Part shown: positions 8,274-29,758 of the stretch, one piece after another
Numbering within the stretch: the first letter of the stretch is position 1
How the letters are laid out: each line of letters starts with the position of its first letter
NCBI GenBank assembly: GCA_036481345.1
Contig: JAZGHU010000012.1
Span: 1 to 37,689 of the forward strand
DNA length: 37,689 nt
Direction of reading: 5' to 3'
From: Candidatus Woesearchaeota archaeon
GTDB taxonomy: Archaea; Nanobdellota; Nanobdellia; Woesearchaeales; WJKL01
Notes under the pieces: generated by a model
What the model was told of the DNA's origin: nothing
The model's database searches: none
The model's input: only the letters and a program-made list of their open reading frames with translations
Position numbers and translations under genes: made by a program

Positions 8274-8326
8274 ATTATTAAAATAATTATAATAGTATTA
8301 AAAATTAAATTGTAATAGTGATTAAT

Positions 8327-14039: not shown

Positions 14040-14613
14040 GAAAGGATTTAGGAATATGAATGAATTGTTATCAAAACTTGACCCGCGTGATTCTTCTTTA
14101 AGAGCAAATATGAATTTTATATCAATACATATCGGAGCTTATGAAAATGAGTTAGAGGAATTGAAAGGAACAGATAATGAATATACAGACTTTTTGCAAA
14201 GACAATGCAAGATTGGTGATCTGGCTCTTAATCAATTGAATCAATATGGTTCTGAATGTATTCTAAAAGCTCAAGAAAGAGTCAAAAACTGGGTTAAACC
14301 TTCAATAAAAGGATATGGTTTTGATGTTGATGATATTGAAGAGTGCAGAACAGAAAAAGATCTATATGAAAAATTAAATCCTTTTGGTTCAAAAGAAGAA
14401 AATATAACTTTATTGGGAGATTTGTTTTTAGAAGCAAGTTCTGCTGGTCGTATCACTCCAATATTTAGGGGGATGATTGATAATGCTGCAGAAGATATAA
14501 ATGAATGTATTATTGATCCAATTGAGAAAGCATATAGAGAAAGATTTGATAATGATGTTTTTGAGTTTTGCAAATTCTATAAAGATAAAGAGGTATTGAA
14601 GGAAAATGAATGA
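14032..14613 (+). CDS. Hypothetical acidic protein
   Basis: Long ORF; GGAGGGGAG upstream of ATG 14032; no family recognised. Confidence 0.8.
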   Translation: MSKKGFRNMNELLSKLDPRDSSLRANMNFISIHIGAYENELEELKGTDNEYTDFLQRQCKIGDLALNQLNQYGSECILKAQERVKNWVKPSIKGYGFDVDDIEECRTEKDLYEKLNPFGSKEENITLLGDLFLEASSAGRITPIFRGMIDNAAEDINECIIDPIEKAYRERFDNDVFEFCKFYKDKEVLKENE

Positions 14614-15316
14614 TTATGATTTTGTAAGAAAAGCCTTGAAGATAGATGAGATGGAACCTTGTAAGAAGAAATTATATTTAAATGAATTAGGTAAATTAGG
14701 TTCTACTAAGTCTGAGAAGGATTGTAAAGAAATAATAACAGGAGAATTTACTAAATATGATCAATGCCTTGCTAGTCTTAGAGGGGAAGGCAATATCTAT
14801 GATGATGAACGTCTAAAAGAAGTGATGAGGTCTCGTACAGTACATCTTACAGAAAAAGAAGCAGAGATAAGACGTACTGCAGCAAAAGATATTTTGGACA
14901 TTATTCAGATTGGTCCTGAAGCTTTTGATGCTCTGGAATCAATTGTAGATAATACATCTTATCTGAGCAAACTGCCAAAGGAAGATGATGAGGAAAAAAT
15001 AATCTATGATGTCAAGGAAAAAGAAGGCAATCGTATAGAAGTGCTTTGTTCTCCAGAACTTATCTGTGCAATGGATAAGTTTGATGATTGGTTAGAAGCT
15101 TTTAAAGAGCACTATAATGAAGCTATTGAAGGCAATTTTGATTATTCTCCTTATAATAATGTACAATTAGTTGGAATGCATATTCCTTCAGAAGAACCAA
15201 GAGTAGATTTTAGAGTTGATTGGTCTAAACATGAATTGGATTTTAGATTTACTGATGAAGATTCAAAAGATATTATTTATGATTTTATAGAAAGGATAAG
15301 AGAAAATGATAGCTAA
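14606..15316 (+). CDS. Hypothetical acidic protein
   Basis: 236-aa ORF overlapping both neighbours; no family recognised. Confidence 0.8.
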   Translation: MNDYDFVRKALKIDEMEPCKKKLYLNELGKLGSTKSEKDCKEIITGEFTKYDQCLASLRGEGNIYDDERLKEVMRSRTVHLTEKEAEIRRTAAKDILDIIQIGPEAFDALESIVDNTSYLSKLPKEDDEEKIIYDVKEKEGNRIEVLCSPELICAMDKFDDWLEAFKEHYNEAIEGNFDYSPYNNVQLVGMHIPSEEPRVDFRVDWSKHELDFRFTDEDSKDIIYDFIERIRENDS

Positions 15317-16301
15317 ATCAATACAAATCTTGAGAAAATTGCAAGCTCCTACTGGTTTGATGATGGCATCACAGGCAGGAGTTACAACTGGTTATAATAG
15401 GGCTTGGCTTCGTGATAATGTTTATGAAGCTCTTGGATTTGAAGCTGTTAAAGATAAAAAAAATGTTATTAAAATCTATAGATGTTTATTAGATATTTTT
15501 CTTAAGCATGAAGAGAAGATTGATTGGGCTATAAGAGAAAAGCCCGATGAGAAATTTAAGTATATTCATGCAAGATATGATCCTCATACTTTTGAAGAGA
15601 TTTATGAGGATTGGGGCAACAAGCAGAATGATGCTGTTGGTGCTGTTCTTTTTAAGATTGGAGAGTTAGAAGAAAAAGGAATTAAAGTTATTAGAAATAG
15701 TAAAGATCTTCGTATATTACAGAAATTAGTTTGGTATTTGGAATCAATTGAGTATTGGCATGATGAAGATAATGGGGTTTGGGAAGAGAATGAAGAAGTT
15801 CATGCTAGCTCTGTTGGAGCATGTGTTGCTGGATTGAAGAAAATAAGTAAAATTGTCGATGTTTCTAAAGAGTTGATTGAGAAAGGGCAGGAAACTTTGA
15901 ATAGATTATTGCCAAGGGAGTCATTGACAAAAGAAACAGATCTTGCTTTGCTTTCGTTGATTTATCCTTATGATATTGTCAATGCAAAACAAAAAAAATT
16001 GATATTAAAGAATGTTGAAGAACAGTTAGTAAGAGAAAGAGGAGTTATCAGATATCATAATGATGCTTATTATAATGAAAATGGAGAAGCTGAGTGGACA
16101 ATGGGTCTGCCTTGGCTTGCAATAATCTATAAACAATTGAATAAGCCTGCACAATATGCAAAATATATGAGAAAATCAGTTGAAGTTATGAATGACCAAA
16201 ATGAAATGCCTGAATTGTATTTTGCAAATTCTCAAAGATTTAATGAAAACAGCCCTTTGGGATGGAGTCAAGCTTTATTCTTAGTTGCGAGGATGAACTG
16301 A
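15306..16301 (+). CDS. GH15-like glycoside hydrolase (phosphorylase kinase alpha/beta-like subgroup)
   Basis: AWLRDN, IHARY, WGNKQND, DNGVWEE, HASSVG, LLPRES.TKETD, EAEW, MPELY, PLGWSQA. Confidence 0.88.
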   Translation: MIAKSIQILRKLQAPTGLMMASQAGVTTGYNRAWLRDNVYEALGFEAVKDKKNVIKIYRCLLDIFLKHEEKIDWAIREKPDEKFKYIHARYDPHTFEEIYEDWGNKQNDAVGAVLFKIGELEEKGIKVIRNSKDLRILQKLVWYLESIEYWHDEDNGVWEENEEVHASSVGACVAGLKKISKIVDVSKELIEKGQETLNRLLPRESLTKETDLALLSLIYPYDIVNAKQKKLILKNVEEQLVRERGVIRYHNDAYYNENGEAEWTMGLPWLAIIYKQLNKPAQYAKYMRKSVEVMNDQNEMPELYFANSQRFNENSPLGWSQALFLVARMN

Positions 16302-16302
16302 A

Positions 16303-16971
16303 ATGAAACATTTTTCAGTTATTATTCCGGCATATAATGAAGAATCTTTGATTGAAAAAACTTTACTTTCAGTTAAGGAACAAGATTATCCTAATTTAGA
16401 GATGATTGTAGTAGATAATGATAGTAATGATTCGACTAGTGAAATTGCTAAGGATTATGCAGATTTGGTTTTGACTTATGGAATGGAACATAATGTTTGT
16501 GCAGTTCGAAATTTTGGAGCAAAAAATTCAAATGGAGAATATATTGCTTTTATTGATGCAGATTCTTGTTTAAGTTCTAATGCTATCAGTAATGCAGCGA
16601 AATATTTGGATGAACAGTATGCAGGAGGAACTTGCAAATTGATTCCTCCAGAAGATAAGTTGATTGCCAAACTTCAGACAGGAATATTAAATAATTGGGC
16701 AAGGTTTATTGCTCCACAATATACACCTTTTATTTATACCACAAAAGAAAATTTTGATGAAGTTGGAGGATGGAATGAAAATTTAGAGTTAGGAAATGAA
16801 TTAGATTTCCAAAGAAATTTATCAAAATTAGGAAAATTGAAATTTGATTTGGAATCTTATATTACAACTTCTCCAAGAAGATATCAAGAAGAAGGTTATA
16901 TGAAAACATCTTTTTTAGGAGTTTTAGGTTATTTTGGATTTAAGATAAAATGGAGGAATATTAGAAAATGA
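16303..16971 (+). CDS. Glycosyltransferase family 2
   Basis: SVIIPAYNEE, VVDNDSNDST, RNFGA, FIDAD, TSPRR. Confidence 0.92.
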   Translation: MKHFSVIIPAYNEESLIEKTLLSVKEQDYPNLEMIVVDNDSNDSTSEIAKDYADLVLTYGMEHNVCAVRNFGAKNSNGEYIAFIDADSCLSSNAISNAAKYLDEQYAGGTCKLIPPEDKLIAKLQTGILNNWARFIAPQYTPFIYTTKENFDEVGGWNENLELGNELDFQRNLSKLGKLKFDLESYITTSPRRYQEEGYMKTSFLGVLGYFGFKIKWRNIRK

Positions 16972-17852
16972 AACCCTCTGAACTTTTTAAATCTGTGAAA
17001 GATTATCTGAAAGAAGTTTATTTTTCTAAATCAAAAGAAATTCCAGATGGGATTCAAGCTGATTTACATGTTCATCCTTATATTACTGATAAAGAATCTT
17101 TAGAACATACTTTACAAGTTATGGATGAGAATGGATTAGATTTAATTGCTTTAACAACACATGGAAAAGGAGGAAGATATGAACATGATTTTTGGAGAGT
17201 TAAGGAATTAGCTAAAGCAGAGTGTGATGTTGAAGATAAAGGGAGATTATTTACTGTAAATTATAATGGCAAGGAACTTAATTTTATTCCTGGATATGAG
17301 ATGTATGTTACTTTAGAAGGAGTTAAAGGAAGGATTGATATGGTTAGTCTGATGTCTGAAGAAGGGTTTGTATCAGAAGTTGAAGTTGGAATGAATTTTA
17401 AAGATTATCAGAAAATTAGTGATAAGTATGATGCAGTTTTGACTGCAGCACATCCTTATACAATATGGGATCCTTGGCCATTGCCTTTTAGATTAGCAAA
17501 AGAAGAAGAAAGAAATGTTATCAAGGAAAAAATATTTTCAGAAGTTGATTCTGTTGATTTAGTTGCAACAAATGCTTTATGGATGCATATTAGTGATAGT
17601 TTAGTAGAAGAAGATTATGAAAAACCACTAACAAATTCTGATGTTCATGGAAAAAACAGATATGCAAGACAGAAAATGGGATGCAGCAGAAATATCTTTA
17701 GAGAATTAGACTTTAATAGTGATAAAAATTTAAGAAAAACACTAATTACAAGTTTAAATTCAGGAGATTTTGAAAATTATCATAATCATTTAAGTCCTAT
17801 GCAATTCTTTGTACAATTATGTATGGGAAAAAAGCCAATAGGTTTTCCTTAG
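16968..17852 (+). CDS. PHP-domain metallo-phosphoesterase
   Basis: DLHVH, ALTTH, GYE, AAHP, NSDVH. Confidence 0.8.
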   Translation: MKPSELFKSVKDYLKEVYFSKSKEIPDGIQADLHVHPYITDKESLEHTLQVMDENGLDLIALTTHGKGGRYEHDFWRVKELAKAECDVEDKGRLFTVNYNGKELNFIPGYEMYVTLEGVKGRIDMVSLMSEEGFVSEVEVGMNFKDYQKISDKYDAVLTAAHPYTIWDPWPLPFRLAKEEERNVIKEKIFSEVDSVDLVATNALWMHISDSLVEEDYEKPLTNSDVHGKNRYARQKMGCSRNIFRELDFNSDKNLRKTLITSLNSGDFENYHNHLSPMQFFVQLCMGKKPIGFP

Positions 17853-19603
17853 AGTTCTTCAATCAGTTCTACAAACATTGCATTAGACCAAGCTTGAGCA
17901 AAACAACCTTGTGATTCTAATCTTGATGCTGAAGATATTTCTGCATGGTGGCCGAGTGCTCCTGATGTTAGGATTTCTTTTACAGATGCTTGAGTAATTT
18001 TGTCAATATAGGATCTGAATTTTAATTTGTTTGTTCTTTTTAATACTAATGCTGCTAAATTATTGATCCAGAACCAAGAATCTCCACGGTGATAGCTTTG
18101 GTTGGATTCTCCTGTATAATCATTGCAGAACAAAGGATTGGACTTGTCTATTGTTGATAATCCTCCATATTTGAGCCAAAGTTTTGGAAGTATATTCTTA
18201 AAGCATAATGTCCATTCTGATTTAGACAGCAGTTCTGGATATATGTATGCTGCAATAAATATATTTGGACGGATTGTGAAGTCTTTTAGTCCGTCTGCAA
18301 GAATCTTTCCATTCCAGAATCTTTCTTTTACTAAAATTCTTAATCCTCTTTCTTGATCAATATATTTTTCATCTTTTGTAAGCTGATAAGCAAGCTTTAG
18401 CATGTTTAGGAATAAAGCTTGGATCTCAATCCTAAATCCTGCTCTTGTATCTTTATCCCATACTGTGTCCATCCATGTTGATTTTGATTCATTGTAGACT
18501 AAACTGTCTGCCATATAATTTTCATTTATGAATTTTATTGCTGCTGTTAATTTCTTCTTTATGACTTCTTTGTCTTTAGAAGAGAATAGTTCTAAACAGT
18601 CAGAAATTCTTTTGAATAACCATCCGATTGAATCTGCATTTGTAGATTCTGCTTTAGGCATATTAATGTTCAATAATCTTCCATTTTTTATTAGGTTGAG
18701 ATTTTTCAATAGAATTTCTTTAACTTCTCTATGTTGATGATTAAGCATCAAAGCTTTTAATGAAATAATCTCATCTCTGCTCCAGAATTGGAAGAACCAG
18801 GGCAATCCAGCAAACAGGCCCCTATTATTCTTTAAGTTTACAAGAAGTTTGTTTAAAGAATTAATACAGCATTTTTTTGCAATCCTTATTTCAGGATTTC
18901 TAGTTAATTTAGTATTGATTTTTGTGACATAGATTTTTTGATGTTCTTTTAATCTAGTCAGATTCTTATAAACATCATCAACTTCTTCTATTGCTCGCTT
19001 TCTTGATCTTGAGAAAGAAAATATAACTGTTTTAGCTTTTAGTTTTAATGCTCTAAATACATGTTTTTCAGATAAAGTGCCTCGAGCTTTGTCAGATCCA
19101 TAATCTCTTTTAACCCATTCTTCTATTTTTTCGTAATCTAAATTATCTGCTTTTATTGCTAAGAATAATTTAGTTGATCCATGTTTATAATCTATCATAA
19201 TCTTAGAATTTGATCTGGAGATCTTATATTCCCTTCCAAATTCAGGATTTGAGTAAGAAGATCTCATGTCAAGTATGAGTTCTATCTCTGCTGGCTGGTT
19301 TAATTCATAGACTAAAGCGTCATAACCATAAGGCATGAAAAAGGATTCTTGGATATTTTTTCTTTTTCTTTTTATTGAAGAGAATTCATTAACAATCTCT
19401 TGTACAGGAGAAGCATTAACTAAAGAGATATTTTCAATTATCTTATACATATCCTTGTCAAATAAAAATATCCCTTGATATCTTGAATGTGGATGAGAAG
19501 CAAGCATACAATAGCCTCCAAGCTTATTAGTCAGCAAAAAATTTGGATCTTGCTTTGTATTTTTAGCTACAATTGTCTTGTTTAACTTATGAATTATTTT
19601 CAT
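17849..19603 (-). CDS. Amylo-alpha-1,6-glucosidase / glycogen debranching enzyme (GH133-like)
   Basis: LLTNKLGGY, AGLPWFFQFWSRD, TWMD, IEIQAL, IRPN, YHRGDSW, QAWS. Confidence 0.9.
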   Translation of the reverse strand: MKIIHKLNKTIVAKNTKQDPNFLLTNKLGGYCMLASHPHSRYQGIFLFDKDMYKIIENISLVNASPVQEIVNEFSSIKRKRKNIQESFFMPYGYDALVYELNQPAEIELILDMRSSYSNPEFGREYKISRSNSKIMIDYKHGSTKLFLAIKADNLDYEKIEEWVKRDYGSDKARGTLSEKHVFRALKLKAKTVIFSFSRSRKRAIEEVDDVYKNLTRLKEHQKIYVTKINTKLTRNPEIRIAKKCCINSLNKLLVNLKNNRGLFAGLPWFFQFWSRDEIISLKALMLNHQHREVKEILLKNLNLIKNGRLLNINMPKAESTNADSIGWLFKRISDCLELFSSKDKEVIKKKLTAAIKFINENYMADSLVYNESKSTWMDTVWDKDTRAGFRIEIQALFLNMLKLAYQLTKDEKYIDQERGLRILVKERFWNGKILADGLKDFTIRPNIFIAAYIYPELLSKSEWTLCFKNILPKLWLKYGGLSTIDKSNPLFCNDYTGESNQSYHRGDSWFWINNLAALVLKRTNKLKFRSYIDKITQASVKEILTSGALGHHAEISSASRLESQGCFAQAWSNAMFVELIEEL

Positions 19604-19615
19604 CTTACAGTTTCT

Positions 19616-20563
19616 TTATTGTTTTTCTCCTCTGTAATATTCTGCAGCTGCTTCTGGAGATACAGAATTTATAATATCATCTGTTAAAAGTTCAAATCCA
19701 GCCCATGTTGCCAATCTTGGAGTTACTTCTATATGGAAATGCAGATCTTCACTGTCTGGAGAATAGAATAATTCCATATTGTAAGGAGAATTCAATTTTT
19801 TTAATTTAGTAAGTATTAATTTCATTATTTCAGCTAAATCTTTTAGCCTGTCTTCACTTAAGTCTGTGATATTCTTTAGATGCTCTTTTGGAAATATCCA
19901 AATTTCGAAATGGAATCTTGATGCATAAGGGGTGAATGCTACAAATGAAGAATTTTCATAACATCTTCTGTCAGAATCTTTTTCTATCTCAAGAATCTCA
20001 CAGTAAGGACATTGATCATATTTATTTACTGCATTAATCTTGTCTTTTACTAGATTTGGCCATTTATTGTATGCAATAATCTGAGAATGTGAATGGACTA
20101 AAGAAGTTCCTCCTTCTTTTCCATGATTTTTGAATACACAAACATAAGAGACGTTTTCTTTTTGAGACAAATCTCTGATTCTGTTAGCATATGTTTCTAA
20201 AACCATCTTGATCTGAGTTTTGGTTAGATCCCATAATTGTTTTTTGTGGTCATTAGTCTCTACAAGAACTTCATGATAACCATAAGCTGAGGCAAATGTG
20301 AAATAATTATTGTGGGTTTCAATCTGTGGATTGCCTTCTAGATCTACTGCTGCAAATTTATTAGGAAACCATCTTAATTTCCATTGTTTTTTTGTTCCTA
20401 TCCTTCCAATTTCAGAGGGAGTAAGATTTTCATTTCCAGGACAGAAGAAACAAATGCCTTCTTTTACCTTTTCTTGGACTTTTTTAAACTCCTTCGGTCG
20501 TTTGCTTCTTGCTGAAGATACAATTACATATCTATCTAAGATGTAATCTTTTCTAAGCTCCAT
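19616..20563 (-). CDS. galT: GalT-family nucleotidyltransferase (HIT superfamily), possibly NDP-glucose phosphorylase
   Basis: ELRKD, RSKRP, CFFCPGNE, FPNKF, FKNHG..GGTSLVHSHSQ, CPYC, AGFEL. Confidence 0.88.
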   Translation of the reverse strand: MELRKDYILDRYVIVSSARSKRPKEFKKVQEKVKEGICFFCPGNENLTPSEIGRIGTKKQWKLRWFPNKFAAVDLEGNPQIETHNNYFTFASAYGYHEVLVETNDHKKQLWDLTKTQIKMVLETYANRIRDLSQKENVSYVCVFKNHGKEGGTSLVHSHSQIIAYNKWPNLVKDKINAVNKYDQCPYCEILEIEKDSDRRCYENSSFVAFTPYASRFHFEIWIFPKEHLKNITDLSEDRLKDLAEIMKLILTKLKKLNSPYNMELFYSPDSEDLHFHIEVTPRLATWAGFELLTDDIINSVSPEAAAEYYRGEKQ

Positions 20564-22377
20564 TATTTTTCACCGTACTTTTTATCTATTGCCTTGTTAT
20601 GTGCTAAGATGTAATTAATGACAAGACGTTTCCAGTCTGCTTTTTCTGCAAGCTTCTTTGCTTCTATCTTGTTTTTAACACGGCCTTGTCTTGTAAAGCG
20701 TGTAAACTTATGCATGAAATTAGTCAATTCATTGATTATTCCATCATCTTTTTTATCCATTCTTTTTAAGACAAAGATTCCAGGATGTCTTTTTTGTTTT
20801 TTCTTCATTATATATTTTCCAAAGCCAGCAAGATCAGTTGTTACTGATGATACACCGAGAGCAGCTGCTTCTAAAGGAGTATAACCCCATGGTTCGTAGA
20901 ATGAAGGGAATACACCTAGGTGGCCTGCTTGCATTGATTCATAATATGTTAGATCCAACAGTCCATCTGCTCCAGTCAAATAGATTGGATAGAATATTAC
21001 TTTTACTTTGTCATCTTCTTTATTATCTAATCCTGTTTTTAACATCAAATCAACTATTTGATCTCCATATTGCTGAAGATCATGGGTTATCAATGGAGGG
21101 GTTCCTTTTTTCTTGAACTTCATCAATTTTCTTTTTGTGTCTTCTAAGAAAGATTCTGGGAAAATGTTTTCTTGAGTTAATTTTTCTTTTGAAGCAATTG
21201 TGTAGAGGATATTTCTTTTTATTTGATTGATATCTTCATCTAATCCATCTCTCATGTCATTGAATAATGTTTTGTTGTCTAGGATATCTAGTTTAATGCC
21301 TCTAATTGCTGTTGGAACCCAAATAAAAGCTATGACTGTTTTTGGACTTTTCATCTCTTTCATCTTTTCATTTAGTTTAGCAAGAGATTTAATGAAAATA
21401 TCAATACCTTTGTTTTTTAATTCATATCTTCCTGCTAGGAAAAAGAAAAGAGTATTCTTTATATTAAATTGATAATATGGGAAGAAGTAATACATTATAA
21501 ACTGTCTTACTTGATCCCTGTGGACGCGATGTTCTATTGATGCTTCTTCAAATGTTGGGAATCTATCATTATCTAATCCATTTGGAAGGATTTTGTGGGG
21601 CTTGATACCTAGAACATATGATGCTTCTAGTCCTGTGATATCACTTACTGTTGTGAAGACATCAGCATTGTTGGCAGAGGCTTTTTCTATCATATGCTTG
21701 CCTTCTGTGTGATAATTATAAGCTTCCTTATCAATATCCATCAGTTGAAGATTGCATTTATTTTCTCCCTTTGGCTTGCAAAATAGATCAATGTTTGCAC
21801 TAGCTAATGCACGGCCCATAACAGTTGCATGGGTTGTGAATACTGTTGCAACATTTGCATTGTTCTTTTTTAGATATAATAGGCCAGGGCCTGCTAACCA
21901 TTCATGGAATTGAGCAACTACTTTTTTATTATAGACTTGAGATAATTTTTCTATTACCATGCCTGCTGCATAGCTCCATACAATCGGTTCATTATATTCA
22001 ACACTATTTGAATTCATAGAATCGACTTTGAAAGTATTCCATAATTCTTTTTTTATCTCATCTGTCTTAAATCTGAAATTTGCAAAGTCAATCAAGATTA
22101 CCTTAGGGGTTCCTTTGATAAGCCATTTTCCAAAGTGGAGCACTATGCCCTGTGCTTCAAGATCCTTGCACACATCTTTGCATTCTTTTGGAGCTGGTTC
22201 TTCTTCAAAGCTGCCAATTGTTTTTTCTGCAAAATAAGGCCCAATACAATTGTATTTCTCCCTATAAAATCTCTTCATCTGGCTTACTTTTGAAGATATA
22301 ACTGTCCATATCCCTCCTACTTTGTTGCAAACTTCCCATGATACCTCAAATACAATTTCAGATTTTGCTTTTGCCAT
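20563..22377 (-). CDS. Glycogen synthase, GT3 (eukaryote/Bacteroidota type)
   Basis: FEVSWEVCNKVGGI, FHEW, FTTHAT, GRYE.KNKG, GVFPSFYEPWGYTP, TTDLAGFG. Confidence 0.94.
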   Translation of the reverse strand: MAKAKSEIVFEVSWEVCNKVGGIWTVISSKVSQMKRFYREKYNCIGPYFAEKTIGSFEEEPAPKECKDVCKDLEAQGIVLHFGKWLIKGTPKVILIDFANFRFKTDEIKKELWNTFKVDSMNSNSVEYNEPIVWSYAAGMVIEKLSQVYNKKVVAQFHEWLAGPGLLYLKKNNANVATVFTTHATVMGRALASANIDLFCKPKGENKCNLQLMDIDKEAYNYHTEGKHMIEKASANNADVFTTVSDITGLEASYVLGIKPHKILPNGLDNDRFPTFEEASIEHRVHRDQVRQFIMYYFFPYYQFNIKNTLFFFLAGRYELKNKGIDIFIKSLAKLNEKMKEMKSPKTVIAFIWVPTAIRGIKLDILDNKTLFNDMRDGLDEDINQIKRNILYTIASKEKLTQENIFPESFLEDTKRKLMKFKKKGTPPLITHDLQQYGDQIVDLMLKTGLDNKEDDKVKVIFYPIYLTGADGLLDLTYYESMQAGHLGVFPSFYEPWGYTPLEAAALGVSSVTTDLAGFGKYIMKKKQKRHPGIFVLKRMDKKDDGIINELTNFMHKFTRFTRQGRVKNKIEAKKLAEKADWKRLVINYILAHNKAIDKKYGEK

Positions 22378-22394
22378 TTTATATTACCCCTTTT

Positions 22395-22961
22395 TTAAAA
22401 TATAGCTGTAAGCACTAAGGCTATCAGCACCCCTAATATTACTCCAAAGATGAATTCTAACAGGCCGCATTTGAGTGTCTTATATGGGCAGTTTATGCCA
22501 TACTTTATCTCTTCTGGGCTCATCTGACTTAGCCTCTTTTTTGTTTTTGATCCTTCTTCCTTAAAGAACATATTGTGTAACCTGTTCTTTGCTGCATGTG
22601 CTTTATTCTTCACTGTCTGCACCTGCTTTCTAGCTATCTTTGGCCTGGCTGCTGGTTTTTTAGCAGTGGTTTTTATCTTTGTTGCTGTTTTTTTATCCAT
22701 GCCTTTCATAGTGTCCTTTTCTATTTTTTTTGCTATTTCTTTCTGGATTTGTTTTCGACTGTTTGCAGATAAGACTTTTGTAGCTAAGTCTTGATCTTTA
22801 ACAACCTCCTTTATCCAGCTATAGAAATCGTTCCTGCTTTCATTTACATGATGCTCGAATGTGTCTTCGGGCATCTTATCCAATGCTTTAGACAGCTCGA
22901 AAAGATTTTTGACTATAGTGCCGTCTTTAAGCAGGAAATAATTTTCCTCTTTTATTCCCAT
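22395..22961 (-). CDS. DUF5752-like domain, Lys-rich linker and C-terminal transmembrane anchor
   Basis: F.LKDG..VKNL.EL...L..M....F.HHV....NDFYSWI; C-terminal LLEFIFGVILGVLIALVLTAIF; GAGGTGA upstream of ATG 22961. Confidence 0.78.
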   Translation of the reverse strand: MGIKEENYFLLKDGTIVKNLFELSKALDKMPEDTFEHHVNESRNDFYSWIKEVVKDQDLATKVLSANSRKQIQKEIAKKIEKDTMKGMDKKTATKIKTTAKKPAARPKIARKQVQTVKNKAHAAKNRLHNMFFKEEGSKTKKRLSQMSPEEIKYGINCPYKTLKCGLLEFIFGVILGVLIALVLTAIF

Positions 22962-22966
22962 GATTT

Positions 22967-23236
22967 TCACCTCTTTTTTCCTACTAAATGTTTTAATAAT
23001 GTAATTTGCATTTCTTTTCTATCTTGGATCTCAGAGAGTCTTGCTGCTAATCTATACTCCTTGAAAACATCTCTAATCCAATTGCTGAAGTCATTATTAT
23101 CTTCACTAATGTGATAATCCAGCTCTTCATCACTTAGATATTCCAATGCAAAAGCTAGTTCACGTACATCCTTTATTAAACCTCCTGTGCATAATGAAAA
23201 ATATTTTTTAGGATCAAGTCCTTTTTTTCTTGGCAT
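22967..23236 (-). CDS. Small soluble DUF5752-like protein
   Basis: F.LCTG..IKD.REL...L.......YH.....NDFSNWIRDVF; paralogous to the next gene. Confidence 0.8.
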   Translation of the reverse strand: MPRKKGLDPKKYFSLCTGGLIKDVRELAFALEYLSDEELDYHISEDNNDFSNWIRDVFKEYRLAARLSEIQDRKEMQITLLKHLVGKKR

Positions 23237-24425
23237 TTGGGTTCACCTCTTTTTGAATCCTTTTGTCAAAATCAGCAAGTATGTTCATGTAAATAATGAA
23301 TGCATCATATGGGCTGTCATATGGATTGAAATATTTATGGACATCTCCATCATTAAACCATTTTGTACACATGTAATAGAAATGGTCAGATGTCTGAAGT
23401 TTTCTCCAGTCGTCAATCAATTTTGGATTTTTGGATCTTTTTACAGCTCTTTCTACTGAATATATCTTTTGTATTGCTGACTGCTGCATCTTATTTCCAA
23501 GCCACGCTGATAAGTCACGTTCTGTGTCTGCCCATGAGACTATGTGGTGGACATCCAGCTCTTCAACTGGCTTGAACTCTTTTATCACTTCGCTTGGTGT
23601 TGCAAACTTGTTATCGGGATGTTTTAAGATTTCCTTTGGAAGATGTTTTAGGAAATTGAAGATTCCTGTTGTAGACCACTGGTGCTCTCCAAAGGTCTCA
23701 TAATCCATGAAAAGATTTACTGTGTTGCCATTTCCATTTACTGCATTGACCCATTGTGTGAACTTTCCAGTTGTCAGGGGCCATTCAGGCCATCCCTGAT
23801 TTGAGAACCTGAATGCAATGTCATCTGATAATTTGTAGTTTTTCAATAAAAGTTTTATTTTCTTTGTTCCTTTTGGCTTGTAGACAAAGTTAGGAGATCT
23901 CCAGCTAAGAATATGGTCTGCTCCTTCTGCTAGTATTCCTTTGTATCCCATTTTTTCTACATAGCTTGCAAGTTCATTGTTATATGTCAATTCTGTATTT
24001 CTGAAAACTTTTGGAGTGTAGCTAAATAGTTGCTTTATCTTCTTTTTATGAAGCATCACTTGCTGCTTGAATTCAGCTTTTGAATAAAGGAAAGCTAAAC
24101 TGTGATGATATGTTTCATCTAAGATCTCAACATTACCAGTATCAACTAATTTTTGGAAGGATTCTAATACATCTGGAGCATTTTTTTCAATCTGTTCAAG
24201 GAAGATTCCTGATAAAGAGTAGCTTATCTTGAAGTTTGGATGTTTTTTGATCAGCTGCAGCATCAGATTGTTTGTTGGAAGATAACATTTATTTGAAACT
24301 TTCTCTAATATTTCTTGATTCTTTTTATGATCAAAATAATCATGATCATTTCCTATTTCAAATACATTATAAGGCCTTAATCTTGCCGGCTGATGAACCT
24401 GAAAATAAAAGCAGATATTAACCAT
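23214..24425 (-). CDS. GH57 alpha-amylase-type glycoside hydrolase
   Basis: FQVHQP, ETYHH, FRNTEL (nucleophile), MDYETFGEH (acid/base), SWAD, QTSDHFYY. Confidence 0.93.
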   Translation of the reverse strand: MVNICFYFQVHQPARLRPYNVFEIGNDHDYFDHKKNQEILEKVSNKCYLPTNNLMLQLIKKHPNFKISYSLSGIFLEQIEKNAPDVLESFQKLVDTGNVEILDETYHHSLAFLYSKAEFKQQVMLHKKKIKQLFSYTPKVFRNTELTYNNELASYVEKMGYKGILAEGADHILSWRSPNFVYKPKGTKKIKLLLKNYKLSDDIAFRFSNQGWPEWPLTTGKFTQWVNAVNGNGNTVNLFMDYETFGEHQWSTTGIFNFLKHLPKEILKHPDNKFATPSEVIKEFKPVEELDVHHIVSWADTERDLSAWLGNKMQQSAIQKIYSVERAVKRSKNPKLIDDWRKLQTSDHFYYMCTKWFNDGDVHKYFNPYDSPYDAFIIYMNILADFDKRIQKEVNPNAKKKRT

Positions 24426-25653
24426 TGTTTTTATCACCCATCATTTTTCGATATACATCCATGCATTCTTTTGCTGGATTGTTCCAATCAAATTTTTTGA
24501 CTTCTAAAGAGCCGTGATGCTTTAGCGTGTCGCTCAATTCTTTATATTTCAATACACCAAGCATCTTATTTACAATCTGATCAATATCCCAGAAGTCAAC
24601 TTTTAGACAATGACTTACTACTTCTGAAACACCAGATTGTTTTGATATCAACACAGGAGTGTTGTTTCTCATTGCTTCTAAAGGGGTAATACCAAATGGC
24701 TCTGATACAGAGGGCATAACATAAAGATCTGCCATTTGGTATGCTTTGTCAATTTCTTGACCCCTTAGAAACCCCGTGAATAGGACTTTGTCAGCTATTC
24801 CGAATTCTGCTGCTTTTTCTATCATGAACTGCTCCATGTCTCCGGAGCCAGCCACTATGAATTTTATGTTTGGATCAAATTCCAATGCTTTTTTAGCAGC
24901 ATATAGGAAATAATCTGGGCCTTTCTGGATTGTGATTCTTCCTAGGAATAGAACTATCTTATCTGTCTCTTTTATCTTGAAAGTTTCTTCTTCAAACTTA
25001 TGATCATTGAATTCAACAGCATTATGGACAACATGAATTTTTTCTTCTGGAATTTCATAATGCTTTACAATCTTATCTTTTGTCCATTTGCTTACCGCGA
25101 TAATTTCATCTGCTTCTTTCATCCCTTGTTTTTCAATATCATATACATATTGATTAGGATTGCCGCCTGTCCTGTCAAATTCTGTTGCATGAACATGGAT
25201 TACAAGAGGTTTACCTGATTTTTTCTTAGCATGGATCCCTGCTTGATAAGTCATCCAGTCATGAGCATGGATTACGTCAAATGATTCTCCTTCAGCTATG
25301 ATTCCTGCTTTGACTGCGTATCTTTTTACTTCTTCAAACAAGCCTGTGCCGTATAATGGTATGTTTTTTTTCTTTCCATATTTCAAGACAGCTTGGCTGT
25401 ATTCTTTGCTGTATTCTTCTGAAGTCATATAGCCCCTTATCATAGAATTTATCCCTATCTTTTTCATGCCTTTTCTGACGTCAGCTGAAACAAGCTTTAC
25501 AAATTCTGCTTTCATCTCTGGATTTGATACTGGGAGGACAAATGTTACACCGGCTCCCTGGTTTTTCAGGCCTTTTGTAAGGCCGTAGCAGGCAGTTCCT
25601 AATCCTCCTGAGTTATAAGGAGGGAATTCCCAACCAAACATCAGGACTTTCAT
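24418..25653 (-). CDS. GT4 glycosyltransferase (glycogen-locus associated)
   Basis: GWEFPP..SGGLG, HAHDW, HVHATE, GRITIQKG, PSVSEPFGITPLEA. Confidence 0.93.
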   Translation of the reverse strand: MKVLMFGWEFPPYNSGGLGTACYGLTKGLKNQGAGVTFVLPVSNPEMKAEFVKLVSADVRKGMKKIGINSMIRGYMTSEEYSKEYSQAVLKYGKKKNIPLYGTGLFEEVKRYAVKAGIIAEGESFDVIHAHDWMTYQAGIHAKKKSGKPLVIHVHATEFDRTGGNPNQYVYDIEKQGMKEADEIIAVSKWTKDKIVKHYEIPEEKIHVVHNAVEFNDHKFEEETFKIKETDKIVLFLGRITIQKGPDYFLYAAKKALEFDPNIKFIVAGSGDMEQFMIEKAAEFGIADKVLFTGFLRGQEIDKAYQMADLYVMPSVSEPFGITPLEAMRNNTPVLISKQSGVSEVVSHCLKVDFWDIDQIVNKMLGVLKYKELSDTLKHHGSLEVKKFDWNNPAKECMDVYRKMMGDKNNG

Positions 25654-25823
25654 TTTTTACCCCTCCATTTTTTGGAGTTGATTATCTTATTAAGATTAGT
25701 TTCTAAGAATTCTTCTAGAATTTCTTTTAATTGATCATTAACTTTTATGTTTTTTAGTTTACAGAAAGCGATGAATCTACGCCATGTATCTTCATCCATA
25801 TCTTTAATCAGCTTATTACTCAT
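25650..25823 (-). CDS. 57-aa ribbon-helix-helix-like protein heading the glycogen operon (not in ORF track)
   Basis: MSNKLIKDMDEDTWRRFIAFCKLKNIKVNDQLKEILEEFLETNLNKIINSKKWRGKK*; ATGA overlap with the GT4 start. Confidence 0.82.
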   Translation of the reverse strand: MSNKLIKDMDEDTWRRFIAFCKLKNIKVNDQLKEILEEFLETNLNKIINSKKWRGKK

Positions 25824-25825
25824 AA

Positions 25826-25870
25826 GTTAAACCTGTTAATCAAGATAATACGGTTAATAAGGTTAAACCT
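25826..25870. promoter_or_regulatory. Five phased 9-bp direct repeats (putative RHH operator)
   Basis: gttaaacct|gttaatcaa|gataatacg|gttaataag|gttaaacct, lying between the minus-strand TATA (tttttata, about 25873-25880) and ATG 25823. Confidence 0.7.
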
Positions 25871-25908
25871 AGTATAAAAAGTTTATGTTTTTCTTTCAGA
25901 AAAACAAC

Positions 25909-25957: not shown

Positions 25958-27178
25958 CTATTCGTATCTCAATGCGTCTACTGGGTTAAGTTTTGATGCT
26001 TGTATTGCAGGGAAAAGTCCTGATAATGTTCCTACTAAGAATGCAAATACTAGGCAGCCAATAACAAGCCAAGCAGGGAATGCTGGGCGAATCATTGAAA
26101 GGCCAACTGATGCTGTTATTGCTCCACCAAGTCTTGCAATTAAGTAGCCAAGTATGACCCCTATTGCTCCCCCTACAAGACCGAGAATTCCTGATTCAGC
26201 TACAAAAACAAAAAGTATGAATTTATTTTTAGCTCCAATTGATTTCATTATACCTATCTCTTGAGTTCTTTCTAAGATAGAAGTATACATTGTATTTGCT
26301 ATATTAACAGCAGCAACAACTACTGAGATTAATGCAATTATGACTAAGACTCCATTTAGAACAAGGATTATGTTTGTGAATGTTTTAAGTACATCTTCAA
26401 ATGTTTGAACTGTGAAGTCTTCTTCTCCTTCTCTCAATCCCCTATGTTTTCTAAATCTTTCTTCTATTTTTTCAGCTAATAATGCTGCGTTTTGATCTGG
26501 AGCAGCCCTTATGTAAACATATTCAAATTCATCTATGTCAAATATCTCTTCAAATCCTTCTTGAGAGATATAGAATTGAGCGTCATCAGCAGGAGAGCCA
26601 ATTTCTTCATAGATGCCCATTACTTCAACTTCAATATCATTAATTTCAACTTTATCCCCTACTTTAATTGCTTTTTTGAATAATCTATTTGGAACAGAGT
26701 TGCTGTATCCTGCAGTTGCCTTTAGAACATCTCCTTTTTTCAAGGCTCTGCCATCCATTATTTCAATTCCACCAAACATCTCTTCTACTAGTCTTTTTTC
26801 TTTGCTGTCTGTTGAAAGACCTATCACAAAAGGATAAACTTCTTTAAAATCTTTAAATTTAATTTTTCCTGTGCTTATATACATGCCTGTAACTTCGTCA
26901 ACTCCATTTATTTTTTTTAGAAATTCAACTTCATCTTTTGTAAATAAGATATTGCTTGTTCCAGGAGGCGATGTCAAGCCTCCGCCAGGCATCAAGAATA
27001 TCTTATCTGTTCCTTGTTCTTGGGCAAACGCACCAATCCAACTATTCAGCCCCTGCCCAAAGCTGACGAGTGCAAAGATTGCAGTGATTCCTATAAGGAT
27101 AGAGAGGATTGTAAGAAAACTTCTCATTTTTCTGTTCCAAAGATTGTTTATTGAATATTTTAGTATGTCTTTTATCAT
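25958..27178 (-). CDS. ABC transporter permease, MacB/FtsX family
   Basis: RSFLTILSILIG, large extracellular domain, NIANTMYTSILERTQEIGIMKSIGA, PAIQASKLNPVDALRYE. Confidence 0.93.
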   Translation of the reverse strand: MIKDILKYSINNLWNRKMRSFLTILSILIGITAIFALVSFGQGLNSWIGAFAQEQGTDKIFLMPGGGLTSPPGTSNILFTKDEVEFLKKINGVDEVTGMYISTGKIKFKDFKEVYPFVIGLSTDSKEKRLVEEMFGGIEIMDGRALKKGDVLKATAGYSNSVPNRLFKKAIKVGDKVEINDIEVEVMGIYEEIGSPADDAQFYISQEGFEEIFDIDEFEYVYIRAAPDQNAALLAEKIEERFRKHRGLREGEEDFTVQTFEDVLKTFTNIILVLNGVLVIIALISVVVAAVNIANTMYTSILERTQEIGIMKSIGAKNKFILFVFVAESGILGLVGGAIGVILGYLIARLGGAITASVGLSMIRPAFPAWLVIGCLVFAFLVGTLSGLFPAIQASKLNPVDALRYE

Positions 27179-27183
27179 CAGCC

Positions 27184-27256
27184 TTTTCCCTCGCTTCGTT
27201 CGGCAAAACCCTGGGGAAAATTTCCCAGTACCATTTTCGCTTCGCTCAAACGGGAC
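27184..27256. repeat. GC-rich three-hairpin insert between the permease genes (REP/MITE-like)
   Basis: TCGCTTCG(T/C)TC occurs twice (27191, 27237), each capping a stem, flanking ctggg-gaaaattt-cccag. Confidence 0.7.
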
Positions 27257-27278
27257 GATTTAATTTCATATTTATTTA

Positions 27279-28502
27279 TCATTTTGCCTGTCTTATGGCG
27301 TCTACTGGATTAAGTTTTGCTGCTCTTATTGCCGGGATTGTTCCGAAAACAGAACCTAAAATAAATGAAAATAATAATGCTCCAATGATCAGTCCTGGAG
27401 AGAAGTGAGCTGAGATCAAGTCTGTTCCTAATGCAATCCTTCCCACAGCTGAAAGTCCTGCTGCGATCAAAACTCCAAGAATAATTCCGATTGCCCCTCC
27501 AACTGTTCCTAAAAATCCTGATTCTACAAAAAATAAAGTAAATATTGTTGAGTTTTTAGCTCCAATCGACTTCATTATTCCAATTTCTTTTGTTCTTTCA
27601 ACAACTGCTGTGTACATTGTGTTCATTATTCCAATGCCTCCGACAATAATTGAGATTCCTGCTATTATGTATACAAAAATTTGTATTCCCAAGATAACTG
27701 AATTAACACTTTCAATAATTGATTGGGGTGTTTCTACTGAGAAATCTTCTTCTCCCTCATCAACATCTCTTATTTTTCTTAGTTTTTTTTCTATGTCTGT
27801 TTTTATTTTTTCTATGTCTTTAGATTCATCAAATTGAACTGCTATGATATCATATTCATCATCTGGCCTGCCAACTAGATTTCTTAGATCATCTTCATTG
27901 AGAAAGACTGTTCCGTCTAATTGGAAATTTCCTTTTTTCTCCATTATTCCAACAACTTTGAATTCCCTATCCAAGACTTCTACTTTAGCTCCTGGAAGAA
28001 TTGCTTTTCCAAATCCATTGTCTTCTTCTCCGAACATCGCTCCTAAGAAAACAGAACCAGATTCCCCGTCTTCTAGAAGTCTTCCTTTTTCTTCTTTCAT
28101 ATTCATGAGATGCTCCATAACATCCCTGTCTTCTCCATCAGGCATAGATAGAGCAAATCCGAATCCAGCTTGTTTATTGTAAACAAGTTTTCCTGATTCA
28201 AATATTCTCCCTGCTACCTCCATAACTCCTTGAACATCGTCTATTGCATTAATTTCTTTTTCTGTCAAGGGGTCGGCAACACCTGTTCCAGGAGGTCCGA
28301 ATCCTCCGCTAGCTATTACAGATAAGATATCTGTTCCTAAGAATCCAAATTGGGAATTTATTGTCTCTCTCAGACCTTCTCCTAATCCTATTAGAGCTAC
28401 GACTGAGGCTATTCCTATGAATATACCAATCATAGTAAGCCAAGATATTATCTTTCTATGCCTCAGAGTATCTAATGCAAATTTAATGTAATCTTTTACC
28501 AT
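27279..28502 (-). CDS. ABC transporter permease, MacB/FtsX family
   Basis: SWLTMIGIFIG, GGIGIMNTMYTAVVERTKEIGIMKSIGA, PAIRAAKLNPVDA. Confidence 0.93.
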   Translation of the reverse strand: MVKDYIKFALDTLRHRKIISWLTMIGIFIGIASVVALIGLGEGLRETINSQFGFLGTDILSVIASGGFGPPGTGVADPLTEKEINAIDDVQGVMEVAGRIFESGKLVYNKQAGFGFALSMPDGEDRDVMEHLMNMKEEKGRLLEDGESGSVFLGAMFGEEDNGFGKAILPGAKVEVLDREFKVVGIMEKKGNFQLDGTVFLNEDDLRNLVGRPDDEYDIIAVQFDESKDIEKIKTDIEKKLRKIRDVDEGEEDFSVETPQSIIESVNSVILGIQIFVYIIAGISIIVGGIGIMNTMYTAVVERTKEIGIMKSIGAKNSTIFTLFFVESGFLGTVGGAIGIILGVLIAAGLSAVGRIALGTDLISAHFSPGLIIGALLFSFILGSVFGTIPAIRAAKLNPVDAIRQAK

Positions 28503-29758
28503 TTACCGAAGATTTTCTTTCCTTTCTTTTTCTGTCTCCAGATGTAGACTCCCAGGCCTCCTATGACGATGATAAAGATTATTACTCCTCCAATACTTCT
28601 TTCTCTTGATAATCCGTATTTTTTAGCTTCTAAAGAGGAATATTGTCTTAATTCTAGATTTTCTGTTAAGGAATATTTATTGTTGTTTGAGTCCATGTAT
28701 TCGATTACTAATGGTAGCGGAACTATGTCTTTTCTACTTTTGACATAAAGGTTGAATTCAGCTGTTTCATAATCATCTGAATCAATGTTCCCGATGTAGA
28801 CTTCTGCAGGAGAGATAATCTCATAATTCTTTGATTCTTTTAATTTGATATTAAGGAATTTTATGTCTGTAACTCCTTTATTTACGAATCTCATCGTCAC
28901 CTTTCCCCCTTTGTTCACCCCATAGATCTCAGAAGATTCAATTCCTACATATATGTCTGGCTTGTCTCCAACAATCAAACTGATTATATCGCTTTTTTCA
29001 TATTTTGTTCCGGCTTCATCATAATATGAAACATCTAATGGAATTTTGTATGCTTGTGAGTCAGCATCAGCCATTGCCATTATATCAAAGACTACAACTG
29101 TTTCTTCTTTTGAATCAAGTTGATAGATCTTTTTTTCAGTGGTTGATCTTATTGGAACAAATGGAATATCTTCTGAGCTCAGATCTATCTTTACTTTTAA
29201 ATCTTTGACTAATGAATCAGCCAGATTTCTTATCTTGAATTTAAGTTTTGCTTTTTGTCCAGGTGGCACCATTTCGGGAATGGACTCGACTTCGTCGATT
29301 TGCAAAACAATATCATCTGTTCTGACTCTTATCACAAAATCTTCAACATATGTCCATCGATCAGACATTTCTCCAAATTTGTATCTTATGTCAATAAAAT
29401 TGTCTCCTTCTACTGCATTTTCGTCAACTTTGAGTTCATAGTGAACAATGACGCCTTCGTCTCCCTGCTGGTATGCCTGCATAGAGCCGATATTTTCTTC
29501 AGCAGATCCAGTATACATAGAGAACGGATATTCAGGCAGGACTTCAAAGATTATATCTTCTGTTCCTCCTCCGCCTTTGTTCTCTATTTTGAACCTTAGA
29601 TCAAGAATCCCACCAGGAGATGCTGGATCTGGCTCTTGACTTATCAGGGTTACCTGTAGTCTTGCAGAGTCTGCTACAATTAGTCCATGTGCTATTGAAG
29701 CAACCCCCAATGTTATCAATAGGCATAATGCCAATATTGCTAGTTTTTTTGTTTTCAT
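28496..29758 (-). CDS. COG1361 S-layer-like / CARDB-repeat surface protein
   Basis: Signal peptide, QEPDPASPG...IENKGG Ig-like repeats, YIGNIDSDDYE, C-terminal TM helix with basic tail. Confidence 0.85.
   Translation of the reverse strand: MKTKKLAILALCLLITLGVASIAHGLIVADSARLQVTLISQEPDPASPGGILDLRFKIENKGGGGTEDIIFEVLPEYPFSMYTGSAEENIGSMQAYQQGDEGVIVHYELKVDENAVEGDNFIDIRYKFGEMSDRWTYVEDFVIRVRTDDIVLQIDEVESIPEMVPPGQKAKLKFKIRNLADSLVKDLKVKIDLSSEDIPFVPIRSTTEKKIYQLDSKEETVVVFDIMAMADADSQAYKIPLDVSYYDEAGTKYEKSDIISLIVGDKPDIYVGIESSEIYGVNKGGKVTMRFVNKGVTDIKFLNIKLKESKNYEIISPAEVYIGNIDSDDYETAEFNLYVKSRKDIVPLPLVIEYMDSNNNKYSLTENLELRQYSSLEAKKYGLSRERSIGGVIIFIIVIGGLGVYIWRQKKKGKKIFGKW

Follow-up and report, generated by a model that had tools for sequence, protein, structure and literature searches.

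How might an archaeon make and use glycogen when the genes of the classical GlgC-GlgA-GlgB-GlgP pathway are largely not found in its genome? The question is raised by a 37,689-nucleotide contig of a Candidatus Woesearchaeota archaeon (JAZGHU010000012.1, assembly GCA_036481345.1), the whole of which is referred to here as the window. Eight open reading frames (ORFs) on its minus strand, running from 25823 to 17849, encode in order a 57-residue protein, a glycosyltransferase of family 4 (GT4), a glycoside hydrolase of family 57 (GH57), two DUF5752 proteins, a GT3 glycogen synthase, a GalT-like protein and a GH133 protein. We consider it likely that this operon serves a Woesearchaeota-type DPANN archaeon for making and turning over glycogen (an α-1,4/1,6-glucan), and that it is organized in two modules. 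Neighboring ORFs either overlap by 1–23 nt or are separated by no more than 17 nt, and inspection of the sequence revealed no evident room for internal promoters between them. The preliminary description of the locus had pictured eight co-oriented, tightly coupled genes, and this was borne out, with six of the families named securely by Pfam or NCBIfam.

The genome behind the window, at 86% completeness, amounts to 924,922 bases on 66 contigs; all genome-wide negative results given below refer to this assembly. The window also encodes topoisomerase VI subunits A and B, an ABCE1/RLI-type protein and a KRR1-type KH protein, and close homologues of its proteins are labelled Candidatus Woesearchaeota; the host belongs to the small DPANN archaea of Woesearchaeota type. 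Every α-glucan gene found in the genome sits within the window: GH57, GDE_C, GH15, NTP_transferase, DUF5752 and the GT5-type N-domain each matched there alone. No GT35, GH13, GH77, GT8 (PF01501) or second GT5-like gene was found in the whole genome. Of the classical set, GT5, the GH13 branching enzyme and GT35 were thus all missing from the matches, the sole Glyco_transf_5 match being the N-domain of the operon's GT4, and the GT8 result means that no eukaryote-type glycogenin priming gene was found either. The proposal of an α-glucan operon built on GT3, and not on GlgC, GT5, GH13 or GT35, was upheld by this search; for glgB, glgC and glgP in the rest of the genome it returned no GH13, no GT35 and a single NTP_transferase, which lies inside the window.

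The GT3 glycogen synthase (20563..22377; this and all other operon genes are on the minus strand) has 604 residues and matched PF05693 over profile positions 1–589 of 639 (E = 4.7e-149; 498.3 bits against a cut-off of 27). Among solved enzymes, it matched yeast Gsy2 at 2.3e-113 and human GYS1 at ~1e-109. The E-x7-E motif of retaining GT-B enzymes is present as EPWGYTPLE at residue 495 and was kept in 61 of 61 orthologues. The positions aligned with the yeast arginine cluster are occupied by R, Q, R, K, E and K, a partial conservation. Overlapping the GT3 stop codon is the gene for the GalT-like protein (19616..20563), a nucleotidyltransferase of the HIT superfamily that scored 118 bits against the cut-off of 102.1 for TIGR00209. 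Its best match in the PDB was Arabidopsis At5g18200 (1Z84; 3.6e-47), with 310 residues aligned and the HSHSQ and CxxC motifs conserved, followed by the archaeal GalT 6K5Z (5.7e-33). The HSHSQ motif is found at residue 157, and HxHxQ was kept in all 31 of 31 orthologues; motif and TIGR00209 score together place the protein in the GalT branch of the superfamily. Against NF008724, the equivalog model for UDP-glucose--hexose-1-phosphate uridylyltransferase, it reached 130 bits, far below the cut-off of 448. The 1Z84 protein is an ADP-glucose phosphorylase that is not known to have GalT activity. Handling of nucleoside diphosphate (NDP)-glucose by this protein, as had been suggested, is plausible in view of the alignment of both motifs with 1Z84. 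The last gene of the operon encodes GH133 (17849..19603), identified by a GDE_C match over residues 258–578 (3.9e-32; 112 bits against a cut-off of 21), the only copy found in the genome; its N-terminal 257 residues matched no family.

The GT4 protein (24418..25653) is a retaining glucosyltransferase with a starch-synthase-like N-domain. Glycos_transf_1 (7.7e-36; 123.6 bits) and Glyco_transf_4 (2.9e-23; 83.2 bits) were both above their cut-offs, and Glyco_transf_5 matched at 8.7e-19. Its best PDB match was GlgM (6TVP; 6.5e-19), and it has an EPFGxxxxE motif at residue 318, the catalytic motif being kept in 39 of 42 orthologues. It is a candidate primer-independent α-1,4-glucan synthase or initiator; nothing was found in favor of the earlier idea that it forms α-1,6 links. 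GH57 (23214..24437; 407 residues) is an α-glucan-active enzyme (PF03065; 6.8e-81, 272.2 bits against a cut-off of 21.2) without a hydrophobic signal peptide at its N-terminus. The motifs HQP, GNVE, RNTEL (with E149), MDYETFGEH (with D245) and TSDHFYYM, named as in the GH57 literature, were conserved across 40 orthologues, and E149 and D245 were invariant in 37 sequences. GH57 is a candidate for trimming or branching the glucan on the side of synthesis. The statement that the window has no GH57 branching enzyme can therefore not be asserted, with the catalytic motifs kept in the operon's own GH57.

Between GH57 and GT3 lie the two DUF5752 genes. The first (22967..23236) encodes a soluble, single-unit OrfY-type protein of 89 residues (PF19027, 24.9 bits against a cut-off of 23; custom profile, 9.3e-25), and the second (22395..22970) an OrfY-type protein of 191 residues that fell below the Pfam cut-off at 21 bits and matched the custom profile at 7.1e-28. 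The second is a clear paralogue of the first (32% identity over 79 residues; E = 3e-16), in which the DUF5752 unit (residues ~5–85) is followed by a lysine-rich linker and a hydrophobic tail anchor at residues ~170–191 (KD19 maximum 2.96, at residue 173). The unit itself spans ~76 residues, with the consensus E..F.L..G...KNL.EL...L..M....F.HHVN..KNDF..W..DV.....LA..L, in which the W is invariant; the 208-position DUF5752 model in Pfam corresponds to two such units. When a profile of 68 units was compared with solved structures, a single one matched, PDB 4CSO (E = 4.9e-10), over two tandem stretches. In Thermoproteus tenax, orfY is co-transcribed with treT, the gene of a GT4 trehalose synthase. 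A literature search on DUF5752, on OrfY with trehalose and on 4CSO found no relevant mention.

The conserved residues of the unit form a polar-aromatic cluster (HH, N, D, F, W) that looks more like a ligand site. On average the units are mildly acidic (mean net charge −2.1, with 62% negative), and the soluble copies carry basic N- or C-terminal extensions. An exhaustive profile search with the unit returned 5,443 cluster representatives at E ≤ 1e-3. These included fusions of 468–804 residues to KaiC-like ATPases (P0031, P0034, P0062, P0067, P0115) and giant proteins of 1,300–1,970 residues with HerA/DUF87 ATPase domains and CarboxypepD_reg repeats (P0035, P0045, P0050, P0068, P0111). We considered the possibility that the unit is restricted to archaea, and rejected it on finding it on genuine bacterial contigs; that it is specific to glycogen was rejected as well, the unit being generic, fused to ATPases and present in up to 11 matches per genome. 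In the host, a search with the custom profile placed DUF5752 in the operon alone. The earlier suggestion that the DUF5752 proteins act as a scaffold found no support.

To what extent is this arrangement conserved? GT3 was present in 214 of 401 sampled genomes of the phylum, a tally that includes the unpublished genomes G360, G244 and G322. Loci were then compared in 60 GT3-centered stretches from 57 GT3-bearing genomes, none of them unpublished, which were annotated with the window's proteins. GH57 lay within 9 kb of GT3 in 39 of the 60 loci. In 38 of these 39, GT4 was directly upstream of GH57, and in 38 a DUF5752 ORF was directly downstream on the same strand. The 39 loci held 68 DUF5752 units in one to three tandem genes each, and a tail-anchored paralogue was present in 25 of them. 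Across the 60 loci, 25 had a DUF5752 gene immediately before GT3 and co-oriented with it; the GalT-like gene was present in 31, in 27 of which it directly followed GT3; and GH133 was near GT3 in 31, a GH15-like gene (~330 residues, within 9 kb) in 17, phosphoglucomutase (PGM) in 10 and a nucleotidyltransferase in 8. All 18 genomes in which GH57 was absent from the GT3 locus carried it elsewhere, with GT4 upstream in 17 and DUF5752 downstream in 15. In all, GH57 was found in 57 of 57 GT3-bearing relatives, compared to 4 of 20 GT3-less relatives, each of the latter at least 96% complete. GT4 adjoined GH57 in all four of these GT3-less genomes, and three of them also had DUF5752 there. One of them (L200; G034:C69:12220-16077) has an unusual order, in which one DUF5752 gene separates a shortened GT4 frame from GH57 and another follows GH57.

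A scan with the GH57 profile, using one genome per species, returned at least 592 relatives, and locus counts were made from the best 80, which were 57–71% identical to the window's GH57. Among these 80, the archaeal sources were Nanoarchaeota, Woesearchaeota and Pacearchaeota, and the bacterial ones were Patescibacteria or candidate phyla radiation (CPR), Planctomycetota, Bacteroidota, Verrucomicrobiota, Fibrobacterota, Spirochaetaceae and deltaproteobacterial bins. GT4 preceded GH57 in 71 of the best 80 loci. Nine bacterial-labelled loci had a single soluble DUF5752 gene after GH57, and in a quick tree their GH57 nested among CPR sequences. Seven of the nine triad contigs were scanned, five had informative flanks, and all five were bacterial by their genes (SecA, Obg, GatB, penicillin-binding protein, sortase, LytR, DprA and shikimate-pathway genes). 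In the quick, midpoint-rooted tree of L120–L199, the window's GH57 belonged to a group of 27 rows (SH-aLRT support, 99%) in which CPR/Patescibacteria predominate, and other Woesearchaeota rows fell elsewhere, which suggests that the cluster may have been transferred between DPANN and CPR. The gene set is widespread in these two groups and not confined to them: GT4-GH57 pairs accompanied by GT3 and GH133 were also seen in Planctomycetota, Bacteroidota and other bacteria. Because DUF5752 is kept beside the same enzyme pair in archaea and bacteria, the simplest reading is that it works as a partner of GT4 and GH57.

The GalT-like gene showed a distribution of its own. Among the 57 GT3-bearing relatives, it was present in 48, while GT35 was present in 13. 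GT35 occurred in 7 of the 9 genomes without a GalT-like gene (these seven belonging to different families), compared to 6 of the 48 with one, an inverse relationship with an odds ratio of 24.5 and a Fisher p of 1.9e-4, which overstates the case in that the genomes are related. In addition, a bacterial GT3–GT35 fusion puts GT35 in the place where DPANN and CPR have the GalT-like gene. Since the two genes alternate and swap positions in this way, the pattern supports a role for the GalT-like enzyme at the glucose-1-phosphate/NDP-glucose node of glycogen metabolism.

From the observed genes, their order and conservation and their family assignments, we infer a working mechanism, in which the catalytic specificities, the priming by GT4, the role of DUF5752 and the regulation are all deduced. 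Module A, consisting of GT4, GH57 and the two DUF5752 proteins, would start and shape the glucan. The GlgA/GlgM-like GT4 would make α-1,4 chains from NDP-glucose without a protein primer, and GH57 would trim or branch them on the synthetic side. The pair would have the OrfY-type DUF5752 proteins, the second of which carries a tail anchor, as accessory or regulatory partners. In module B, the eukaryote-type GT3 would elongate the glucan, the GalT-like enzyme would interconvert NDP-glucose plus phosphate and glucose-1-phosphate plus NDP, and GH133 would debranch during mobilization, helped by a nearby GH15-like hydrolase. Substrate would be supplied by a PGM and nucleotidyltransferase pair 11 kb away, and the small, putatively DNA-binding protein at the operon head probably autoregulates the operon.

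The head ORF (25650..25823) encodes a small protein of 57 residues that is conserved, with 42 homologues at 62–100% identity, demonstrating that it is a real gene. It was previously called a ribbon-helix-helix (RHH) protein, an identity that we could not substantiate. No Pfam family matched at E ≤ 0.01 and no RHH family even at E ≤ 10, the best PDB match of a profile built from 27 homologues was ParG (1P94) at a non-significant E of 0.89, and the β-α-α pattern was judged by eye alone; it is thus a possible, unproven RHH regulator, and the repressor role earlier ascribed to it is conjectural. Upstream of it are a TATA-like box, TTTTTATA, at 25873..25880 on the minus strand, read from the sequence ~53 nt before the first start codon, and a direct repeat, AGGTTTAAC, at 25870-25862 and 25834-25826 on the same strand. 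The TATA-like box and a proximal AACAGGTTTAAC before the start codon were kept in a same-family relative (L035), and we regard both as putative promoter elements. In seven other lineages (L046:8643-8873, L052, L053, L059, L062, L087 and L091), a winged-helix ORF of 76–103 residues overlaps the GT4 start, in the place of the window's 57-residue ORF; the L046 copy matched HTH_5 at 2.5e-5. Lineages thus seem to have recruited different small regulators to this site at the operon head.

Several points weigh against the two-module proposal. The 86% completeness of the genome makes its absences provisional, and GT35 is present in a same-family relative (G321). The single transcript is predicted, the layout of the eight genes being its basis. 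GT4 reached only 139.6 bits against the cut-off of 302.4 for the NCBIfam family glgA_Coryne (TIGR02149), the Corynebacterium-type GT4/GlgM subfamily, to which it was consequently not assigned. No solved GH57 branching enzyme was matched at E ≤ 0.01 by either the protein or its profile, the sole match being the 4-α-glucanotransferase 1K1W (6e-6). Of the 101 genomes examined from the order, 82 carried DUF5752, with as many as 11 matches per genome, and it was also found in genomes without GT3 and GH57; its unit occurs fused to KaiC-like and HerA-like ATPases. The one solved homologue, 4CSO, was deposited as "ORFY protein, transcription factor". According to PMC11046441, in the passages available, archaeal GT3 is enzymatically uncharacterized, and those passages report no biochemistry for the operon's GT4, GH57 or DUF5752.

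The label of 4CSO leads directly to the possibility that the DUF5752 proteins are transcription factors of the operon and not accessories of its enzymes. The match of this structure to the unit at 4.9e-10, the resemblance of the KaiC-like ATPase fusions to archaeal regulatory architectures and the basic extensions of the soluble copies are all consistent with such a role. A transcription factor is harder to reconcile with the tail anchor found in 25 of 39 loci, with one to three tandem paralogues per operon, and with units that are acidic on average and conserve what looks more like a ligand site. Moreover, a small ORF of DNA-binding type already heads the operon in the window and in its family relative, and a winged-helix ORF does so in the seven other lineages. 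We therefore hold a transcription-factor role to be somewhat unlikely. A different division of labor would have module A make another product, such as a short or modified α-glucan, an oligosaccharide or a compatible solute, leaving glycogen to module B alone, by analogy with the GT4/GH57 pair that serves mycobacteria in making methylglucose lipopolysaccharide, or with the trehalose unit TreT-OrfY in Thermoproteus. The GH57 unit does occur without GT3 in 4 of 20 GT3-less relatives, DUF5752 is homologous to OrfY, and the best PDB match of GT4, GlgM, is a maltose-1-phosphate synthase and not a polymerase. On the other hand, GH57 accompanied GT3 in 57 of 57 genomes and DUF5752 stood directly upstream of GT3 in 25 of 60 loci, no TreT structure was among the 14 PDB matches of GT4 at E ≤ 1e-10, and no GH13/GlgE that could use maltose-1-phosphate was found in the genome. 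In Sulfolobus, GH57 is needed for glycogen itself (PMC8158581, as far as the available text goes). A separate product of module A is in our judgment unlikely.

The GalT-like protein might also be an ordinary Leloir galactose-1-phosphate uridylyltransferase with no connection to glycogen, as its score for TIGR00209 galT_1 and its second-best match to an archaeal GalT would allow. This we consider quite improbable: the genome gave no match to a galactokinase signature, the gene has an overlap with the GT3 stop codon, it directly followed GT3 in 27 of 60 loci and was next to PGM in 10, NF008724 failed, 1Z84 was the best structural match, and the presence of the gene is inverse to that of GT35. 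Finally, the cluster could serve mainly to digest α-glucans scavenged from a host or the environment through the GH57 amylase, GH133 and GH15, and not for carbon storage. Woesearchaeota metagenome studies do annotate these three families as starch or glycogen degradation (PMC11606122, in the portion available), and a SemiSWEET gene is present in the window. However, two synthases (GT3 and GT4) share the predicted transcript with the hydrolases, the N-terminus of GH57 has no hydrophobic signal peptide, and Sulfolobus genetics place GH57 on the synthetic side (PMC8158581, again in part), making a mainly digestive function very improbable indeed. A glycogen synthesis and turnover unit with two modules remains our preferred interpretation.

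A bolder extension of this interpretation, which we put forward tentatively and regard as rather doubtful as a whole, combines two proposals: that the GalT-like enzyme and a reversed GT3 replace glycogen phosphorylase in most DPANN and CPR, and that DUF5752 is a glucan- or sugar-binding partner of GT4 and GH57. In the first, GT3 might run backwards with catalytic NDP, and the NDP-glucose formed would be cleaved by phosphate to glucose-1-phosphate, which would pass through PGM to glycolysis. If true, this would amount to a two-enzyme phosphorolysis of glycogen, the reverse path being a pyrophosphate-free synthesis. In the second, DUF5752 would be a small partner conserved across the archaea–bacteria divide and tail-anchored in many archaea; if so, the tail-anchored protein would tie glycogen initiation to the membrane. 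We also considered whether a missing glucokinase forces phosphorolysis here, which was rejected, as a ROK-family kinase was found in the host genome and in 39 of 58 genomes (an ADP-dependent kinase was found in none of the 58). With this kinase, the host could also proceed by hydrolysis through GH15 and GH133 and a subsequent phosphorylation. The host ROK-family match (2.5e-45; G000:C21:4452-5222, plus strand) reads through one in-frame TAG, and the match in G321 has one TAA.

Other genes of the window complete the picture. A sugar-1-phosphate nucleotidyltransferase of 231 residues (6045-6740, minus strand; PF00483, 4.5e-40), the only NTP_transferase match in the genome, overlaps the gene for a phosphoglucomutase/phosphomannomutase of 503 residues (6712-8223, minus strand; PGM_PMM I–III, 4.3e-32, 1.6e-13 and 8.9e-21). 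This pair, 11 kb from the operon, is the likely NDP-glucose supply. The claim that there is no glgC in the window was in this sense misleading. Adjoining the pair is a SemiSWEET-type sugar transporter of 91 residues (5558-5833, plus strand; MtN3_slv, 6.6e-9). Converging on GH133 is a five-gene overlapping operon (14026-17852, plus strand) that encodes two proteins without a Pfam match (195 and 236 residues), a GH15-like protein, a GT2 (16303-16971) and a 294-residue protein with a weak CehA/McbA metallohydrolase match. The GH15-like protein (15306..16301, plus strand; PF00723, 7.8e-17), the only copy found in the genome, has 331 residues and consists of a catalytic domain only; it is likely an exo-glucohydrolase for glycogen breakdown. 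That it is a fragment of a split gene was rejected, since ORFs of ~330 residues recur in relatives. In the same-family relative L035, the two ORFs without a Pfam match and the GH15-like gene have counterparts beside the cluster. Because the nucleotidyltransferase, PGM, GH15-like and SemiSWEET genes, all overlooked in the preliminary description, also lie in the window, the window as a whole looks self-contained; the eight genes alone, for which this had been proposed, do not, given that the nucleotidyltransferase–PGM pair and the GH15-like gene are outside the operon.

Two further parts of the window were noted. At 25958-30459 (minus strand), upstream of the operon, are two paralogous MacB/FtsX-type permeases (406 and 407 residues), a 420-residue protein without a family and an ABC ATPase. 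A 310-residue protein at 8318-9250 (plus strand) shows an unusual pairing of an ArsR-type helix-turn-helix (HTH_20) with an S-layer-like outer domain (S_layer_C).

The preliminary description had viewed the locus as a distinct, undescribed system. This view could not be maintained in light of the 214 of 401 genomes with GT3, a CPR locus with the same order (L129), bacterial GH133-GT4-GH57-GT3/GT35 clusters and the account in PMC11046441, as far as available. The operon is known as a kind of system, though not biochemically characterized, and is typical of a gene set that is found in DPANN, in CPR and in a number of bacterial phyla; for its lineage, the operon itself is ordinary. New here are the near-invariant GT4-GH57-DUF5752 triad, common to DPANN and genuine CPR contigs, the match of DUF5752 to the solved OrfY (4CSO), and the distribution of the GalT-like gene, which is complementary to that of GT35. 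The fixed triad, the OrfY link and the GalT-like/GT35 alternation merit follow-up. Together they offer the orphan "ADP-glucose phosphorylase" family and DUF5752 their first physiological context. Three issues are described as open in a recent review (PMC11046441, in part): how GT3 is primed without glycogenin, which enzyme branches glycogen in archaea without known branching enzymes, and what GT4 does next to GH57. The operon and the comparative pattern bear on GT3 priming, archaeal branching and the GT4 role through four to six small soluble proteins.

The published accounts, in the passages available, describe closely related gene sets. PMC11046441 (Chem Rev 2024) confines archaeal GT3 to DPANN and Euryarchaeota, places DPANN GT3 near those of the Planctomycetes-Verrucomicrobia-Chlamydiae (PVC) group, eukaryotes and Bacteroidetes, and notes that GT4-GH133-GH57 clusters exist, that the role of GT4 needs clarifying, that no glycogenin was found and that the GH57 "amylase" is a possible missing archaeal branching enzyme. 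Glycogen storage is called a DPANN hallmark in PMC10266531, Woesearchaeota metagenome-assembled genomes with GH57, GH133, GH15 and glycogen synthase, plus transcripts, are reported in PMC11606122, and PMC7935935 cites a UDP-glucose-dependent, eukaryote-type synthase of Prevotella bryantii. The DPANN and euryarchaeal GT3 sets of PMC11046441 and the nanohaloarchaeal genes of PMC10266531 share with the window GT3, a GT4 of unclear role, the GH57 "amylase", GH133, GH15, PGM and a nucleotidyltransferase, with neither a "classical" GH13/GH57 branching enzyme nor glycogenin found. The available passages of these two papers mention neither DUF5752 genes, with their tail-anchored paralogue, nor a GalT-like gene, nor the fixed order of GT4, GH57 and DUF5752.

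The glg cluster of Sulfolobus acidocaldarius consists of amyA(GH57)-glgA and glgC-gaa(GH15)-glgX(GH133), and deletion of amyA abolishes glycogen, while deletion of GH133 or GH15 raises it (PMC8158581, likewise in part). As predicted for the window, GH57 is co-transcribed with a synthase and needed for glycogen, and GH133 and GH15 degrade it; there is likewise no classical branching enzyme, and Pfam DUF5752 matches the Sulfolobus genome too. The differences are a GT5 synthase in place of GT4 plus GT3, glgC inside the cluster and no GalT-like gene. The likeness to OrfY of Thermoproteus tenax (4CSO) is in its two tandem units, each of which matched the 76-residue DUF5752 unit, and in the NDF[AS]xW motif, but in the window the two units are two genes, one of them membrane-anchored. 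For the GalT-like protein, the difference from At5g18200 (1Z84) is that the gene is embedded here in a glycogen operon. The bacterial GH133-GT4-GH57-GT3/GT35 clusters of Deltaproteobacteria, Spirochaetaceae, Fibrobacterota and Desulfovibrionaceae (L158, L170, L190, L194, L195) have an orthologous GT4-GH57 pair (GH57 57–62% identical), with GT3 and GH133 in one cluster, but differ in having a GT3-DUF3417-GT35 phosphorylase fusion of ~1,400 residues (L158, L195) and neither GalT-like nor DUF5752 genes. In CPR, the Paceibacterota locus L129 is GT4-GH57-GT3-GalT-GH133, which is the order of the window minus the DUF5752 genes, and four other loci (L181, L126, L135, L180) are GT4-GH57-DUF5752-GH15. 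There, DUF5752 is single and soluble, without a tail anchor, no small head ORF was seen, and behind the triad comes a full-length GH15 (660–674 residues), compared to the catalytic-domain-only protein of ~330 residues in DPANN relatives.

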